The translations under genes were made by a program, and so were the position numbers. Of a stretch of 16,547 bases of DNA, positions 892-15,393 are shown one piece after another (within the stretch, counting starts at the first letter, position 1; each line of letters opens with the position of its first letter). A model generated the notes under the pieces. It ran no database searches. It saw only the letters and a program-made list of their open reading frames with translations, and was not told the origin of the DNA. This DNA comes from Escherichia phage JLBYU27: the sequence record OK272475.1; one strand, given 5' to 3'.

Positions 892-921
892 TTGCATTGC
901 GGATGTTGGTTGCATTATATT
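892..921 (+). promoter_or_regulatory. sigma70-like promoter for the plus-strand clamp-like gene
   Basis: -35 TTGCAT (892-897), 18 bp spacer, -10 TATATT (916-921); leader GGTTGCGCACCAACAACGAGGAA contains the RBS. The same -35/-10 hexamers and a near-identical leader recur on the minus strand at 10679-10735. Confidence 0.4.
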
Positions 922-950
922 GGTTGCGCACCAACAACGAGGAAATGACA

Positions 951-1463
951 ATGATTAAAGTTAACTATGCCGATCTTAAAGCCGCTATGATGTGCGCCGC
1001 AACTAATGACGTGCGATACTATCTGAACGGTGTATTTTTCGACGAGAAAGGATTCATCGTGTCCACCGACGGACATCGCTTGTTCTGCGGGTCCGCGGTT
1101 GTTCCCGAAGGTGAAAGTAAAATAGTAGCAATTAAAGGCCGCTTACCTACTAAATTCGAATATTGCAACATAGACGGCACCTCCGCTGCGTTCTTTGATA
1201 GTAAAGACGTATTAATCGGTACCATACCCGTAGAGATCATAGACGGCCGATTCCCAGACTGGCGTAGATTTACGTCTTTCGACAGCGCTAAAGTGGAGGC
1301 TATAGGGTTTGCCGGGGTGTACCTGTCCGACGCCTGCAAAATTGCTAAATTGTTCGACCGTAAGTTTGATAGCTTAAAACTGGAATTTCAGGGAGTAGAC
1401 AAGGGGGCACGTGTGCTGTTCAAAGGCGGTGCCTTCCTTGTTATCATGCCGATGCGCTTGTAG
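951..1463 (+). CDS. truncated DNA polymerase III beta sliding clamp (DnaN) homolog, domain II plus shortened domain III (170 aa)
   Basis: ATG at 951 with GAGGAA 7-8 nt upstream. Protein contains DVRYYLNG, TDGHRL and DGRFPDWRR and ends in VIMPMRL, matching conserved E. coli DnaN motifs as recalled (DVRYYLNG, TDGHRL, DGRFPDYRR, C-terminal VVMPMRL). No equivalent of DnaN domain I. Opposite strand to all neighbours, with its own promoter and a terminator. Confidence 0.75.
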   Translation: MIKVNYADLKAAMMCAATNDVRYYLNGVFFDEKGFIVSTDGHRLFCGSAVVPEGESKIVAIKGRLPTKFEYCNIDGTSAAFFDSKDVLIGTIPVEIIDGRFPDWRRFTSFDSAKVEAIGFAGVYLSDACKIAKLFDRKFDSLKLEFQGVDKGARVLFKGGAFLVIMPMRL

Positions 1464-7769: not shown

Positions 7770-7805
7770 GGACAATATATCACGGGACTTATCGAGGCGG
7801 GCAAT
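7770..7805 (-). promoter_or_regulatory. extended -10 promoter-like element for the metallophosphoesterase gene
   Basis: Minus strand reads CGTGATATATT (TG-n-TATATT) flanked by GTCCCG / GTCCCCGG motifs; possible weak -35 TTGCCC 19 bp upstream. Confidence 0.35.
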
Positions 7806-7830
7806 AAAAAGCCCGGATAATACCGGGCTT
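7802..7830 (-). terminator. rho-independent terminator ending the lysis operon
   Basis: 8 bp stem AAGCCCGG / CCGGGCTT with 6 nt loop; on minus strand followed by TTTTTATT. Located 7 nt after the stop of the 55-aa ORF. Confidence 0.7.
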
Positions 7831-7836
7831 GATTGT

Positions 7837-8004
7837 TTACGCTGCAGGACCAGATTCTTCCTGCGGTGGTGGGCTTGGCAGCTTCGCATCGAAGACCCCA
7901 GCGTGGCTGATAGTGTCCGCGATGATAGCGCGTGCCCCAGGATCTTCGGTTTTAGCCAGTGCGGCAAGCGCGTCCGCATTATGATCAAGAATACTTTTCA
8001 ACAT
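7837..8004 (-). CDS. hypothetical small protein (55 aa) downstream of endolysin
   Basis: ATG at 8004 with GAGGGGA RBS about 7 nt upstream. No TM segment or lipobox, so not a spanin. The longer ORF-track form (to 8241) would overlap the endolysin gene and is not favoured. Confidence 0.4.
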   Translation of the reverse strand: MLKSILDHNADALAALAKTEDPGARAIIADTISHAGVFDAKLPSPPPQEESGPAA

Positions 8005-9031: not shown

Positions 9032-9083
9032 AAAAAAGTCCCAGTAAGTTTTAGCTCACTGGGACTATATCACGCTTGCATAA
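9032..9083 (-). promoter_or_regulatory. terminator-like hairpin with embedded extended -10 element immediately upstream of holin
   Basis: Perfect 9 bp inverted repeat AGTCCCAGT (9037-9045) / ACTGGGACT (9058-9066) with 12 nt loop; on minus strand followed by TTTTTT then the holin ATG. Minus strand also reads TTATGCAAGCGTGATATAGT (TG-n-TATAGT) overlapping the upstream arm. Confidence 0.45.
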
Positions 9084-10372: not shown

Positions 10373-10678
10373 TTATTTCGCAAGCTGGGCGAATAGTTCG
10401 CGCTGGGCTTTAATCCGGGCGACGTTTGCCACTGCCGTCTCGCCAATACTGAAGAGATATGCCAGGCGCTCACGGGAGAATGCTTTGGCGTATTCGTGAA
10501 TCGCCACACGCAACGGCTTCAGTTCGTCCAGGCTGGCGTCCATGCGGTAGAGCGCATCCCTAATTGATTGGTGCGCCAGAATAGCAATCTGAAGCGCGGC
10601 GTCTACGCTGCCGTTAAGTGCCTTCGCTTCGTCCAGCTTTGCCACGGCCAGGGTGTAATTCCAGATTAGTGCTTTCAT
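10373..10678 (-). CDS. hypothetical helical protein (101 aa), first gene of the operon upstream of the lysis genes
   Basis: ATG at 10678 with AGAGGA RBS 7 nt upstream, directly downstream of the sigma70-like promoter at 10707-10735. Confidence 0.55.
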   Translation of the reverse strand: MKALIWNYTLAVAKLDEAKALNGSVDAALQIAILAHQSIRDALYRMDASLDELKPLRVAIHEYAKAFSRERLAYLFSIGETAVANVARIKAQRELFAQLAK

Positions 10679-10699
10679 CGTTCAGTCCTCTTGTTGGTG

Positions 10700-10740
10700 T
10701 GCAACCAATATAGCAGTGTGCCAGGCAGGATGCAACCAAT
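10700..10740 (-). promoter_or_regulatory. sigma70-like promoter with extended -10, flanked by two ATATTGGTTGCA direct repeats
   Basis: Minus strand: -35 TTGCAT (10735..10730), 17 bp spacer, TGcTATATT (10715..10707). The 10-mer ATATTGGTTGCA occurs twice (complement of 10701-10712 and 10731-10742). Leader is near-identical to that of the clamp-like gene. Confidence 0.45.
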
Positions 10741-10945
10741 ATTAATCACGCGTATGAAAAAGTTGATCGCTATCTGCTGAAACTGCAAACTGCATTTTTC
10801 ACTTTCCATTCTGCATCGCGCATTGGTTGCCGAGTTCATCGCCGACCGCAATTTGCATCATGTTGCCGTGGATTATGCAATCCCGGATTTTATGCAGTCT
10901 CAGACGAGGGGGGTGACAGACCCCCCGTCTAGTCTGAAAGACTGG

Positions 10946-11210
10946 GGTGCTGTCCCGCTGTCCCGATCGGCTAAACCCCGCGGCAGCACTGGCGGGGACA
11001 GGGTGCTGTCCCGCTTTGTCCCGCCCCTGGTCTGTCCCGCTTTTTGTCCCGCTTAGTTTATGCACGAAAACAGAATAGATATTCACATTTTGGGGGTGGG
11101 ACAGATCGGGACAGCACCCCTGTCCCGTTTTTAATTTATGCAATGTTGGTGGGTAAATATGCAGTTTTTAGAGGTGCGGGATAGAACGGGACAAAACGGG
11201 ACGTCCCGCC
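10946..11210. repeat. iteron-like array of at least 12 copies of TGTCCCGC / GCGGGACA in both orientations
   Basis: Forward copies at about 10951, 10959, 11007, 11017, 11033, 11045, 11121; inverted copies at about 10993, 11097, 11106, 11176, 11186; a perfect 12 bp palindrome CGGGACGTCCCG at 11197-11208. Longer unit GGTGCTGTCCCGC recurs three times. Interspersed AT-rich TTTATGCA motifs. One hairpin CGGGACAG-caccc-CTGTCCCG is followed by TTTTT. Confidence 0.8.
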
Positions 11211-11222
11211 TGTACCGCTTCG

Positions 11223-11899: not shown

Positions 11900-11913
11900 T
11901 GTAGTATTCTCCA

Positions 11914-11938
11914 ATAAAAAAGGGGCCGTGCTGGCCCC
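11914..11938 (-). terminator. rho-independent terminator after the major tail gene
   Basis: Stem GGGGCC / GGCCCC with loop of 5 nt; on minus strand followed by TTTTTTATT. Sits between the major tail stop and the chaperone RBS. Confidence 0.65.
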
Positions 11939-11968
11939 ATATTATCACCCGCTATTTAAGCGACCAAA

Positions 11969-13822: not shown

Positions 13823-14415
13823 TATTTCACCTTCGAATTAATTTCTGCCGCTACGACGCGAACAATCCCCGCGGGCGCTTGTTTACTCCAGCCATACTCA
13901 AGTCGCTGCGCGTATGGCACGTTGTTAGTAAACCAGATCGACCCGTATTCACTGGAATCGTAATGCGCCAGCACTTCACGCCCTGCGGCTAATGTTGCCG
14001 TTCCGGCCTTATCCACGCGGTCAATAGCGCCAACAGCCGGGCGGTCGAACGTAACCTGCCAGTTTCCCCGGAAGCGTCCGCCGGTGTAATTCTTCGCAGC
14101 CCAGCCACGCTGGCGGAACGTGACGTTGCCGTTTTTAGTCTTGAATGATACCAGCACGCTGGCGTGCTTTTTCTGCCCGCGCTTCAGTTTGCCACCATTC
14201 TTGCGACGCTGCGCGGCGTTCACCTTGTTCGCGTGCTGGCGGGCCAGCGCGTAAGCCCTGTTAATTTTCCACCGGCGAGGGTCGCCCACCGGGGAGATCT
14301 CAATAAGGCGTCCGAGTATTTGCATACCGTACGCCCGCACCGCCTTGTCGTTGTTCTCCTTCGTCTTATCCACCCACGTTGCAATAGTGGCGGCGAATGA
14401 GTAGACCTCAGCCAC
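13822..14415 (-). CDS. putative tail completion / head-tail component (lambda Z-position, 197 aa)
   Basis: GTG start at 14415 with AAGGGG RBS 6 nt upstream. Basic protein (RRKNGGKLKRGQKK). Assignment by size and synteny. Confidence 0.4.
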   Translation of the reverse strand: MAEVYSFAATIATWVDKTKENNDKAVRAYGMQILGRLIEISPVGDPRRWKINRAYALARQHANKVNAAQRRKNGGKLKRGQKKHASVLVSFKTKNGNVTFRQRGWAAKNYTGGRFRGNWQVTFDRPAVGAIDRVDKAGTATLAAGREVLAHYDSSEYGSIWFTNNVPYAQRLEYGWSKQAPAGIVRVVAAEINSKVK

Positions 14416-14416
14416 G

Positions 14417-14770
14417 TTAACCCCTTAGCTGTAGTTGAAACAGCATGGTTGTTCCAGCCGGTTGCAGTGGGTTTGGATTGATGACCCTGTAGTCTATATT
14501 GTTCAGGCTAACCAAATCCCCGACCTGCACCGGCTTTACTGCCTGGCACAAAAACTTCACATCCCCGGCAACGATACGCGTCCCGTCGATCTCGCTTGGC
14601 TTGTACTCCTCGCGAAGTCCGATGACGTCAAACGAGGTCGGAGGGATGACAACTTCGTCGCCGTCTACGCGGTCGACTGCACCAGGACGCGTCACCGTAG
14701 CCGTCATTCCGAACTTTTTAATCAGCGGATTGACTTTCCGCTTCAAGCCAGCGTAATTAAAGCCCGCCAT
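14417..14770 (-). CDS. putative head-tail joining protein (lambda FII-position, 117 aa)
   Basis: ATG at 14770 with AGGAGG 6 nt upstream; same length as lambda FII (117 aa) and similar overall architecture. Assignment by size and synteny. Confidence 0.45.
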   Translation of the reverse strand: MAGFNYAGLKRKVNPLIKKFGMTATVTRPGAVDRVDGDEVVIPPTSFDVIGLREEYKPSEIDGTRIVAGDVKFLCQAVKPVQVGDLVSLNNIDYRVINPNPLQPAGTTMLFQLQLRG

Positions 14771-14891
14771 TATCATCCTCCTGTACCGGTGGTTCCGGTT
14801 CTGGCGCTGGTTCCGGTTCTGGCGCTGGTTCCGGTTCTGGTTGGCGTTTAGTATTTGCGGCGATAATAGCCGCCAGTAATGCAGGATTCAT
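14757..14891 (-). CDS. small Pro/Glu-repeat protein (44 aa) encoded over an 18-bp tandem repeat
   Basis: ATG at 14891 with GGGGGTGA RBS; MNPALLAAIIAANTKRQ followed by PEPEPAPEPEPAPEPEPP. Coding status uncertain. Confidence 0.35.
   Translation of the reverse strand: MNPALLAAIIAANTKRQPEPEPAPEPEPAPEPEPPVQEDDNGGL
14786..14848. repeat. tandem repeat, about 2.8 copies of an 18-bp unit GGTTCCGGTTCTGGCGCT
   Basis: Read directly at 14791-14843; the unit is itself built from three related hexamers; encodes (PEPEPA)n on the minus strand. Confidence 0.8.
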
Positions 14892-14892
14892 A

Positions 14893-15393
14893 TCACCCCC
14901 GGAATACGTCAAAATTACCCGCTGCGTTGCCGTCTGCGTCAATCCAGTGTCCCAGCAAGCCATCCCACCACGGGAACGAAACACCGCTACCAATCGTCGC
15001 AGGGTCATATTCCATCGTGATCGGGCCTACCGTTTCGCGGATAGTCTCCTTTCCATCGCCGATCGGAGAAATATCAACATCGTCAGCCACCAGCATTGCC
15101 AGCCGGTAAACGGCTTGTTCAACGGCAACGGGGATTGATGCGAAGTCTACAATCTGCCCAGCAGGTACTACTGCCAAATCTTCAGTAAGCGTGTTCAGTA
15201 CCGGCTTACCGTCTGATGGGTAGTTGATGCGGGGCCATGCGTCAATTCCGGTCGGGTCCGCCGGTTCGCCGATCCAGGCGATGCCGTTGAGGAAATCATT
15301 AACTATGGTAAGGTGTCGCGTTGCATCGCCCTGCGTAATTTCAACGCCTCGCGCCGCGGCATAAACAACGAAGGTTTGCGGGTCGCCATACAT
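14893..15393 (-). CDS. putative head completion / head-tail connector protein (lambda FI-position, 166 aa)
   Basis: ATG at 15393 with AGGAG RBS 8 nt upstream; first gene after the capsid-gene terminator. Function by position only. Confidence 0.4.
   Translation of the reverse strand: MYGDPQTFVVYAAARGVEITQGDATRHLTIVNDFLNGIAWIGEPADPTGIDAWPRINYPSDGKPVLNTLTEDLAVVPAGQIVDFASIPVAVEQAVYRLAMLVADDVDISPIGDGKETIRETVGPITMEYDPATIGSGVSFPWWDGLLGHWIDADGNAAGNFDVFRG

Follow-up and report, generated by a model that had tools for sequence, protein, structure and literature searches.

The question raised by this locus is why a promoter and leader in front of a single gene should recur almost unchanged in front of an operon of small proteins about 10 kb away on the opposite strand, and whether the two transcription units are controlled together. 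The DNA analysed is a stretch of 16,547 nucleotides from Escherichia phage JLBYU27 (record OK272475.1), referred to throughout as the window, which shares ~92% identity with Escherichia phages B2 and YD-2008.s across 92% of its length and matches 162 phage records. All four records examined in full, and the best among the listed matches, are Dhillonviruses (HK578-like coliphages), and judged by its sequence the window is Dhillonvirus DNA as well; an integrase or CI-like gene is annotated in none of the four records, and the phage is virulent by annotation. The minus strand encodes nearly all of the window's genes, namely those for scaffold, head morphogenesis, portal, terminase and exonuclease, the lysis genes, a cluster of small genes, and genes of the head and tail; the sole plus-strand gene, at 951-1463, breaks into this series. 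Relative to YD-2008.s 19316-36135 the window is circularly permuted, with ends that adjoin in that reference, and positions 10890-11064 match two places in YD-2008.s 16.6 kb apart, which are the repeat regions A and B of the SO-1 GenBank record. The permutation leaves the comparison of the two cassettes unaffected, since complete genomes also carry them ~10.5 kb apart on opposite strands. In what follows the plus-strand cassette promoter is called P_moron and the minus-strand promoter of the small-protein operon P_B; their elements, as read from the sequence, are the following.

892-897, plus strand: -35-like hexamer TTGCAT of P_moron, agreeing with TTGACA at 3/6 positions, 18 nt before the -10
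906-915, plus strand: TTGGTTGCAT, that is TTGGTTGC(AT), adjoining the -10 on its upstream side inside the 18-nt spacer ("slot 2")
916-921, plus strand: -10 hexamer TATATT of P_moron
920-934, plus strand: palindrome TTGGTTGCGCACCAA, TTGGT-tgcgc-ACCAA, a putative operator ("slot 3")
939-943, plus strand: Shine-Dalgarno sequence GAGGA of the moron
951-1463, plus strand: clamp-like gene, from the ATG at 951 to the stop at 1463; an in-frame ATG at 945 is the start annotated in relatives
10823-10830, plus strand: extra copy of TTGGTTGC, ~85 nt upstream of P_B in the opposite orientation, inside repeat region B
10739-10730, minus strand: TTGGTTGCAT of P_B ("slot 1"), whose last six bases, TTGCAT (10735-10730), are the -35
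10729-10713, minus strand: 17-nt spacer of P_B, hypervariable among phages
10715-10707, minus strand: extended -10 of P_B, TGcTATATT
10708-10694, minus strand: palindrome TTGGTTGCACACCAA, TTGGT-tgcac-ACCAA, a putative operator (slot 3)
10690-10686, minus strand: Shine-Dalgarno sequence GAGGA of the small-protein operon, followed by the ATG at 10678

Local alignment of plus-strand positions 916-943 with minus-strand positions 10712-10686 gave 26 identical bases out of 27, with one mismatch and one gap, the aligned sequence being TATATTGGTTGC(G/A)CACCAACAA(C/-)GAGGA. The look-alike regions with TTGCAT, TATATT and a near-identical leader that the earlier note had described are therefore real, and they share more than a generic -35, -10 and ribosome-binding-site consensus. 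Their common core, TATATTGGTTGC(G/A)CACCAAC, is a -10 hexamer fused to a palindrome. In P_moron this palindrome covers the predicted start (~G928) together with the final two bases of the -10, and in P_B the predicted start (~A10700) together with the end of the -10. A repeat search of the window lists the two cassettes as an inverted pair (I3, 22 nt, 95%). By a crude measure, a 22-nt match was reached in 1 of 100 shuffles of the window, which makes it only moderately unusual within the window; the decisive evidence for the similarity is comparative. Two details of the original description hold in part. The leader had been taken as shared down to the ribosome-binding site, and ~22 nt are indeed alike, but conservation stops at ACCAAC and the remainder is the Shine-Dalgarno sequence; similarity beyond ACCAAC(A) is lost in related phages with other cargo genes. 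Likewise, the element said to occur twice in each region, the 12-mer ATATTGGTTGCA, is present twice exactly in the minus-strand region, but the plus-strand copies, ATGTTGGTTGCA and ATATTGGTTGCG, each match it at 11/12 positions.

The view that these regions drive the genes behind them is supported by their form, in that both resemble sigma70-type promoters placed directly before genes, with a -10 that has A2 and T6, a -35 starting with TTG, and a spacer of 16-18 bp. From this resemblance we infer promoter activity in both cassettes, with transcription starting near 928 on the plus strand and near 10700 on the minus strand. A generic sigma70 scan (at least 4/6 per hexamer and at least 9/12 in total) called neither of them, because the -35 TTGCAT reaches 3/6 against TTGACA and the total 8/12. 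With -35 elements this weak, P_moron and P_B could instead be promoters that require activation.

The comparative evidence comes from relatives across the genus. In IMG/VR, 12 contigs of Dhillonvirus contain the 17-mer ATTGGTTGCNCACCAAC twice, at the two orthologous positions, and three further contigs carry a single substitution in one of the two copies; the scan for this 17-mer returned 81 stretches, of which those from outside Dhillonvirus were unrelated coding sequences. To avoid ascertainment bias, both promoters were re-collected through anchors outside the motif, and among the loci so collected 1 of 15 for P_moron and 2 of 14 for P_B differed from the 17-mer, by one base each. Of the four natural palindrome variants, three affect the central five bases, and the arms are altered only once. 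Across 16 distinct P_B sequences, variation was seen in 1/10 columns of the slot-1 motif and in 2/16 of the -10-proximal operator, compared to 12 of the 16 spacer columns scored (10729-10714), so that mean pairwise identity is 0.69 in the spacer versus 0.98-0.99 in the flanking motifs. For P_moron, the -35 of 16 distinct Dhillonvirus sequences reads TTGCAT, TTGCAA, TTGCAC or TTGCGC, with TTGC invariant, and the slot-2 motif is kept in all relatives (with one TTGGTCGC variant) next to 8 upstream nucleotides that vary. The -10 changes at its third base alone, with A2 and T6 kept (TATATT or TACATT in P_moron, TATATT or TAGATT in P_B).

The conserved part of the cassettes belongs to a larger family. 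The 8-mer TTGGTTGC occurs 18 times in the complete YD-2008.s genome, with 13 of the 18 copies located in non-coding DNA, which makes up 9% of the genome, and two more forming the last bases of genes directly ahead of the next promoter. It is the joint-top intergenic 8-mer of that genome, the other top word, TGTCCCGC, being the iteron of regions A and B. Equivalent sites are present in SO-1, TheodorHerzl and CHD5UKE2, with 20-21 copies per genome, and the extra copy at 10823-10830 has orthologues in all four records (YD-2008.s 35895, SO-1 40513, TheodorHerzl 38877, CHD5UKE2 17592). About 15 TTGGTTGC sites lie at about 10 sigma70-type promoters, in either orientation and at set positions around the -35 and -10. 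In slot 1 the TTGCNN of the motif is the -35 itself (P_B, and YD-2008.s promoters at 971, 3727 and 9111); in slot 2 the motif adjoins the -10 on its upstream side (P_moron, YD-2008.s 3744 and 5660); and in slot 3 it covers the start site along with the final bases of the -10 (P_moron and P_B). Near-consensus promoters have the motif inverted. The rightward early promoter, TTGACT-N17-TAATAT, carries GCAACCAA within its spacer, and the promoter before the ssDNA-binding protein gene, TTGACC-N17-TAAATT, has inverted copies flanking the -10 on both sides. SO-1 and CHD5UKE2 possess an additional small gene, absent from the window, with a promoter TTGACT-N18-CATACT and two inverted motifs. Counted by eye from the site list and annotation, ~10 motif copies run along with transcription and 5 against it, and this independence of orientation fits an operator better than a core promoter element. 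Two other readings of the promoter regions were tried and rejected, namely a sigma54 promoter (the P_B spacer contains TGGCAC, but by eye there is no GC at -12, and TGGCAC is not conserved in relatives) and staggered tandem promoters (by eye, no -10-like hexamer is properly spaced from the slot-2 or slot-3 copies).

The perfect palindrome TTGGT-N5-ACCAA is found three times per 44.6-kb genome, compared to an expectation of 0.02, and two of the three are within the window. The third, outside it, stands in TTGACA-N17-TAGTTT-cg-TTGGTcattaACCAA before the gene for a helix-turn-helix (HTH) protein, EpYD_55 (gp47 in SO-1), and P_moron and P_B thereby make up two-thirds of a three-member class. In YD-2008.s, SO-1 and TheodorHerzl each of the three palindromes is directly 3' of a -10, and the start codon follows 14-16 nt or less beyond all three. 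By sequence and position, a specific site recurs over the core elements of several promoters, as is the case for a repressor operator. The common operator that had been raised as one possible basis of co-regulation is accordingly what we favor, as a DNA site probably recognized by a regulator, on the strength of the motif family, its positions and its conservation. The proposed co-regulation of the moron and the small-protein operon survives in this form, but not as a private link between two units; given so many sites at so many promoters and the third palindrome, it would be regulon-wide.

The other basis that had been offered was an RNA-level element, that is, a hairpin UUGGU-N5-ACCAA in the shared 5' leader that sets mRNA stability or translation. 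An inverted repeat is indeed present in both units, 5-6 nt before the Shine-Dalgarno sequence. Nevertheless, a start ~7 nt past TATATT falls inside the palindrome, which leaves the 5' arm of the hairpin untranscribed, and the same word occurs elsewhere at promoter positions that are not transcribed and in both orientations. The predicted hairpin (-3.0 to -3.6 kcal/mol) folds no better than shuffled sequences (z of +0.8 and +0.3), and a search of Rfam yielded no family match. We therefore set this suggestion aside as extremely improbable.

If the shared site is a DNA operator, a reader is to be expected, and EpYD_55 is the foremost candidate. This 109-residue protein, encoded outside the window, was the only one among the proteins scanned to have a DNA-binding domain, with HTH_23 and Sigma70_r4_2 each exceeding the respective Pfam cut-off, and it showed additional weak matches to ECF sigma factors. 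A tblastn search located it in 155 phage records, with a breakdown by organism name nearly equal to that of the 155 records that bear the cassette, and 24 clusters of homologues were found among 5.8 billion proteins. Among 20 homologues, residues 47-106 with the HTH hardly vary, and residues 1-45 are hypervariable or replaced. In an AlphaFold model (pLDDT 84) a 55-residue helix is followed by the C-terminal HTH; a fold search with this HTH model aligned just the 35-45 residues of the HTH itself (LuxR/GerE, resolvase, IstA), all at E > 1, and these model-based matches are generic and assign the protein to no family.

Presence of the HTH protein and enrichment of the motif go together in the genomes compared. 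The metagenomic relatives L090 and L092, which are ~72% identical at the nucleotide level over half of 20 kb, have kept the invariant HTH head and carry 13-14 motif copies per 20 kb, with the motif directly 3' of the HTH-gene -10 and a P_B equivalent that has slots 1 and 2 and no palindrome. In the Salmonella Jerseyvirus LSPA1, a single outgroup with a related replication module, the motif occurs twice, which is the level expected by chance, and tblastn of the HTH protein against this genome gave no match. The palindrome or motif directly 3' of the HTH-gene -10 is common to YD-2008.s, SO-1, TheodorHerzl, L090 and L092. It is absent from CHD5UKE2, where the HTH-gene promoter lacks the palindrome and the remaining regulon is intact, an observation that counts against the link between protein and motif. 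The HTH gene of CHD5UKE2 is divergent in its N-terminal domain only and its motif is unchanged, so that comparison of their covariation is uninformative. From the co-occurrence and the autoregulation-like site we infer that the HTH protein binds the motif, although different proteins may read the 8-mer TTGGTTGC and the TTGGT arms of the palindrome.

A host factor could in principle read the motif instead and tie early expression of the phage to host metabolism, the candidates being PdhR (of the FadR subfamily of GntR regulators) and CytR. The PdhR box is AATTGGTnnnACCAATT, and its half-sites ATTGGT and ACCAA(T) are identical to those of the phage palindrome; its core GGT-N3-ACC is required (PMC7660256). 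The spacer is thus 3 nt for PdhR and 5 nt for the phage, all phage palindromes being N5, and N3 sites at no more than one mismatch number 0 in 44.6 kb. Some motif copies (TTGGTTGCATT) include the CytR octamer GTTGCATT; a CytR operator is a pair of such octamers with a CRP site within ~5 nt, and CytR acts only beside CRP sites (PMC3454398). The conserved part of the copies, however, is TTGGTTGC, many of them lack the CATT of the octamer, and no CRP-like site (up to three mismatches) is present in 805-950 or 10680-10890. Furthermore, motif enrichment tracks the phage HTH protein rather than the host, as illustrated by the chance-level count in the Salmonella phage. Control by either host protein is very unlikely.

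The accessory nature of the plus-strand unit bears on a different alternative. The name clamp-like given to its gene is apt, as the product is by sequence a homologue of beta-clamp domain II (PDB match at E ~1e-7): 34 PDB beta-clamp sequences were matched at E ≤ 0.036, 33 of them below 0.002 and the best at 1.5e-7. The alignment is limited to clamp residues ~140-300, so that the protein corresponds to a clamp fragment only. The Pfam match to DNA_pol3_beta_2 falls below the cut-off, and a single-sequence AlphaFold model (pLDDT 34) was unusable, the identification being made through the PDB sequence matches. The SO-1 homologue is listed in GenBank as "possible moron gene product", and the unit does have the layout of a moron, with its own promoter (892-934), its gene, contents that differ among relatives, and a closing terminator.

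1473-1493, both strands: bidirectional intrinsic terminator that closes the moron

The moron has the spanin genes on one side and the scaffold gene on the other and is transcribed against the neighbouring late genes, with up to three genes in CHD5UKE2. Homology to YD-2008.s ends at 936 and resumes at 1463, other genes occupying the place of 937-1462 there, and across 155 records the match to 880-950 either is full or ends at a few recurring points, mostly 936 or 943. The same cassette precedes other accessory genes in related genomes: at least five different first genes are found behind P_moron (the clamp-like gene, MRLTKDIK, MTNMTV plus Nmad5, MPTLIK and MLTFNNGIA) and two behind P_B. The Nmad5 operon is thus one cargo type, and Nmad5 has been implicated as a trigger of the Tmn defence (PMC11846954). 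We propose, on these sequence comparisons, that the promoter-operator module forms a fixed left edge behind which accessory genes have been exchanged.

Exchange of this kind could also account for the shared cassette by itself, if a resident promoter was copied to the moron and now acts as a homology patch for cargo swaps, with no dedicated regulator. That homology between phages breaks right past ACCAAC(A) or the Shine-Dalgarno sequence agrees with such a history, as do the diversity of first genes behind an identical P_moron and the 21 identical bases that P_moron and P_B share, the third palindrome differing in its centre and its -10; there is also a precedent in the promoter and stem-loop (PeSL) cassettes that mediate modular shuffling (PMC2839356). 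An evolutionary footprint nonetheless leaves unexplained the ~15 motif copies at defined positions of many unrelated promoters, the invariance of the motif beside a hypervariable spacer, and its retention at ~72% identity in relatives whose P_B equivalent is arranged differently. Recombination and regulation can, moreover, coexist. We consider it quite unlikely that the cassette is a footprint and nothing else.

The late part of the genome is organized differently, as is apparent from the other features downstream of P_B and around it.

10690-9070, minus strand: small-protein operon, five or six small proteins that match only PHROGs of unknown function
9066-9037, minus strand: strong intrinsic terminator (12-bp stem and T run), at which the small-protein operon stops immediately ahead of the holin gene
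9072, 7782, 6550 and 12765, minus strand: motif-free extended -10 promoters of the holin, exonuclease, terminase and major-tail genes, respectively

The operon had been linked to the lysis genes downstream of it; the strong terminator separates the two, and the lysis and packaging genes have extended -10 promoters of their own. Each of the four late promoters listed is inside or just past a terminator. As these late promoters are without the motif, TTGGTTGC marks promoters that are not late.

A conserved motif family with specific positions, a palindrome class of three members, and co-conservation with an invariant HTH head are observed. Taken together, they lead us to regard both cassettes as sigma70-type promoters for host RNA polymerase, each with an operator to which a regulator encoded by the phage, probably a Cro-like repressor, would bind, a reading to which we assign a probability of roughly 55%. 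In this scheme TTGGTTGC would be the operator word, merged with the -10 at its 3' end and completed to TTGGT-N5-ACCAA over the transcription start. A second copy lies at the -35 in P_B and immediately upstream of the -10 in P_moron. Occupancy of these sites by the protein would prevent open-complex formation, and both units would be switched off or throttled along with the other motif promoters, among them the two divergent early promoters, the ssDNA-binding-protein promoter and the cor promoter. The most likely binder would be the 109-residue EpYD_55/SO-1 gp47 family protein, which is expressed from the third palindrome promoter and would repress its own gene, much like lambda Cro during lytic growth. 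With their motif-free extended -10 promoters, the genes for lysis, terminase, scaffold and tail, which are late, would escape repression, so that the moron and the small-protein operon would be expressed early and then turned down before late transcription runs antisense through the moron. Experimental transcription data for any Dhillonvirus were not found in the literature searched.

The sign of regulation is where this reading meets its main competitor, in which the same motif and the same protein act positively. Bound to TTGGTTGC near the -35, the HTH protein would recruit or re-target host RNA polymerase, and the TTGCAT-type promoters, P_B and P_moron among them, would belong to a "middle" class that becomes active only after the early protein has built up, comparable to T4 MotA boxes, Mu Mor/C and phi29 p4; in a variant, the same protein also represses the consensus early promoters, giving a dual switch. 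Since the motif itself supplies the -35 in several promoters (TTGG|TTGCAT), the arrangement fits a -35-binding activator as well as it fits a repressor. The motif-bearing promoters that are not early have poor -35 elements (TTGCAT, TTGCAA, TTGCTG), which in P_B, P3727, P9111 and P971 are the 3' half of the motif, and the failure of the generic scan to call either cassette points the same way. Additionally, the HTH domain resembles sigma region 4, with Sigma70_r4_2 above the Pfam cut-off and weak ECF-sigma matches, which counts against a repressor. In promoters with a consensus -35, the motif is placed in the spacer or at +1 and is inverted, which suggests two classes of promoter. Against activation, the -35 of P_moron is free of the motif and its two copies flank and overlap the -10; the palindrome over +1 in both cassettes is in a position typical of repression; the motif is used in both orientations; and the good -10 elements (TATATT, with a TG extension in P_B) may need no activator. 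Weighing these points, we hold positive control to be possible but unlikely. With the same reserve, and as a speculation, a single HTH protein with an invariant, sigma region-4-like head and a freely exchangeable N-terminal domain might run the whole early-to-middle switch, silencing consensus early promoters from sites over -10/+1 and replacing the poor -35 at TTGG|TTGCAT to activate the second class, the module then being a socket that times accessory and anti-defence genes (the clamp fragment, Nmad5 and others).

The practical outcome of the operator reading is a testable map of the promoters of one regulon, a candidate regulator, and a set of late promoters outside the regulon. Dhillonviruses are common and widely used coliphages, represented in the BASEL collection and among phage-therapy isolates, and they serve as models in studies of the Avs2, Tmn and retron defences; P_moron, as a socket for variable accessory genes that include Nmad5, may be useful in phage engineering. 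No prior description of the motif or of Dhillonvirus promoters was found in the literature searched, including the Dhillonvirus genome papers; a full-text literature search for the raw motif returned unrelated primer matches only, and the SO-1 GenBank record notes the A and B repeat regions and the "possible moron" only. The type of system is nonetheless a familiar one, a phage operator regulon plus a moron, and involves no new regulatory principle.

One close parallel is with phage lambda. Lambda Cro is a small early HTH protein that lowers early transcription in lytic growth, and the Cro/CI operators (OR and OL) comprise multiple sites over the -35, -10 and start of early promoters, including that of Cro itself. 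The Dhillonvirus arrangement would be similar in having a small HTH protein and repeated sites on core elements, its own promoter included. It differs from lambda in that the 8-mer occurs singly, as a direct repeat or within a 15-bp palindrome, at ~10 promoters rather than in two operator clusters, and in that the candidate HTH protein has no sequence similarity to Cro and is a predicted binder only.

Stoperators of cluster A (L5-type) mycobacteriophages are likewise short asymmetric sites in many copies, mostly intergenic and read by one phage HTH protein, with one site of the L5 type at an early promoter (PMC9283540). The Dhillonvirus sites resemble them as many short asymmetric sites in the intergenic gaps of a siphophage, the HTH reader here being a candidate. 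However, stoperators are orientation-dependent, lie in intergenic gaps that are transcribed, block elongation and serve temperate-phage immunity, whereas the sites described here occur in both orientations, within promoters and at a set spacing from the -10, in phages with no lysogeny module, and a stoperator-type system was rejected on the grounds of position and orientation.

The PeSL elements of T4-type phages combine a strong early promoter with a terminator stem-loop, are present in dozens of copies in hyperplastic regions, and can yield circles by recombination between repeats (PMC2839356, PMC4122927). Similarly to PeSLs, a repeated sigma70-like promoter module here borders variable accessory genes and marks the breakpoints of gene replacement. 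A PeSL cassette was rejected as an identification, the module having two exact copies per genome, a 5-bp palindrome at +1 (~-3 kcal/mol) and no terminator stem-loop; unlike in PeSLs, the unit repeated genome-wide is the 8-mer.

Finally, a moron in the sense defined for the lambdoid phages HK97 and HK022 is a promoter, gene and terminator inserted between conserved genes. P_moron, its gene or genes and the terminator correspond to this definition in their location between conserved genes and in their variable contents. The difference from lambdoid morons is that P_moron is not foreign: it bears the operator motif native to these phages and remains conserved throughout the genus as the cargo behind it changes.

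The 90 nt 5' of P_moron, the plus-strand promoter of the clamp-like gene (892-934), are almost invariant across the genus, because they hold a probable promoter of the scaffold and capsid genes, on the minus strand, and a conserved palindrome (857-882):

865-857, minus strand: predicted scaffold and capsid gene promoter TGaTAATAT, back to back with P_moron
866-882: palindrome GCGAT-N7-ATCGC, adjoining the minus-strand promoter

Terminators divide the late gene train into units, and an extended -10 promoter (TGaTATAGT, TGaTATATT, TGtTATAAT, TGgTATGAT) comes after or overlaps each terminator. These late promoters have neither a -35 element nor TTGGTTGC, the putative operator 8-mer of the phage's non-late promoters. 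The positions are as follows:

9072-9037, minus strand: late extended -10 promoter and terminator
7830-7774, minus strand: late extended -10 promoter and terminator
6581-6542, minus strand: late extended -10 promoter and terminator
12765-12757, minus strand: late extended -10 promoter

The promoter at 9072 has its predicted start within the terminator hairpin, on the 5' arm, so that its transcripts would miss the full terminator. Separately, two bidirectional terminators, 1470-1500 and 11913-11943, resemble each other as an inverted pair (31 nt, 81% complementary) sharing the form AAAAAGGGGCC-loop-GGCCCC.

Two GenBank ORFs span P_B, the minus-strand promoter of the small-protein operon, and overlap both the promoter and its hypervariable spacer; they are probably not real genes. 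A further small ORF, longer than its YD-2008.s counterpart, contains a tandem repeat.

YD-2008.s 35747-35881: EpYD_53, spanning P_B
CHD5UKE2 17444-17557: P9604_gp35, spanning P_B
14787-14840: three perfect or near-perfect copies of the 18-nt unit CG(G/C)TGGTTCCGGTTCTGG, inside the small minus-strand ORF 14757-15008

TGTCCCGC shares the top rank among the phage's intergenic 8-mers with TTGGTTGC; it is the iteron word of regions A and B, the repeat regions named in the SO-1 GenBank record; all 13 copies in the phage are non-coding, and nearly all lie within these two regions. Region A, flanked by the tail chaperone genes on one side and the tape measure gene on the other, could possibly serve as an origin, a packaging site or a regulatory site.

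10940-11220: iteron-dense non-coding region, with 7 copies of (C/T)TGTCCCG(C/A) and repeated TATGCA words
10903-10929: GC hairpin of the iteron region
11107-11127: GC hairpin of the iteron region

The window is a circular permutation (ends 16547/1) of the reference segment YD-2008.s 19316-36135. In YD-2008.s, A and B are direct repeats that lie 16.6 kb from each other and have an identity of only 81.6%. The window holds at 10890-11064 a single hybrid copy of the 175-bp repeat, its left flank that of region B and its right flank that of region A; either A/B recombination has thus excised the window as a circle, or its assembly was closed through the repeat.

In some Dhillonviruses an additional 47-aa gene separates the exonuclease region from the endolysin region and has its own promoter (TTGACT-N18-CATACT) bearing two inverted copies of TTGGTTGC; the gene is absent from the window at the corresponding place, about 7804-7837.

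CHD5UKE2 14254-14284: promoter of the 47-aa gene
SO-1 43634-43657: promoter of the 47-aa gene
YD-2008.s 38505-38834, outside the window: gene of the candidate HTH regulator

When homologues of this candidate regulator (149 aa in CHD5UKE2) were aligned, the C-terminal 60 residues were almost invariant while the N-terminal 45 differed wholly between lineages, with at least four unrelated types, a pattern suggestive of an exchangeable N-terminal domain for partner binding or dimerisation. In the Jerseyvirus Salmonella phage LSPA1, the HTH protein had no match and TTGGTTGC was not enriched; LSPA1 has an over-represented 8-mer family of its own, ACGGCAAC / GTTGCCGT (18 copies), which may be an analogous regulatory word of other specificity.
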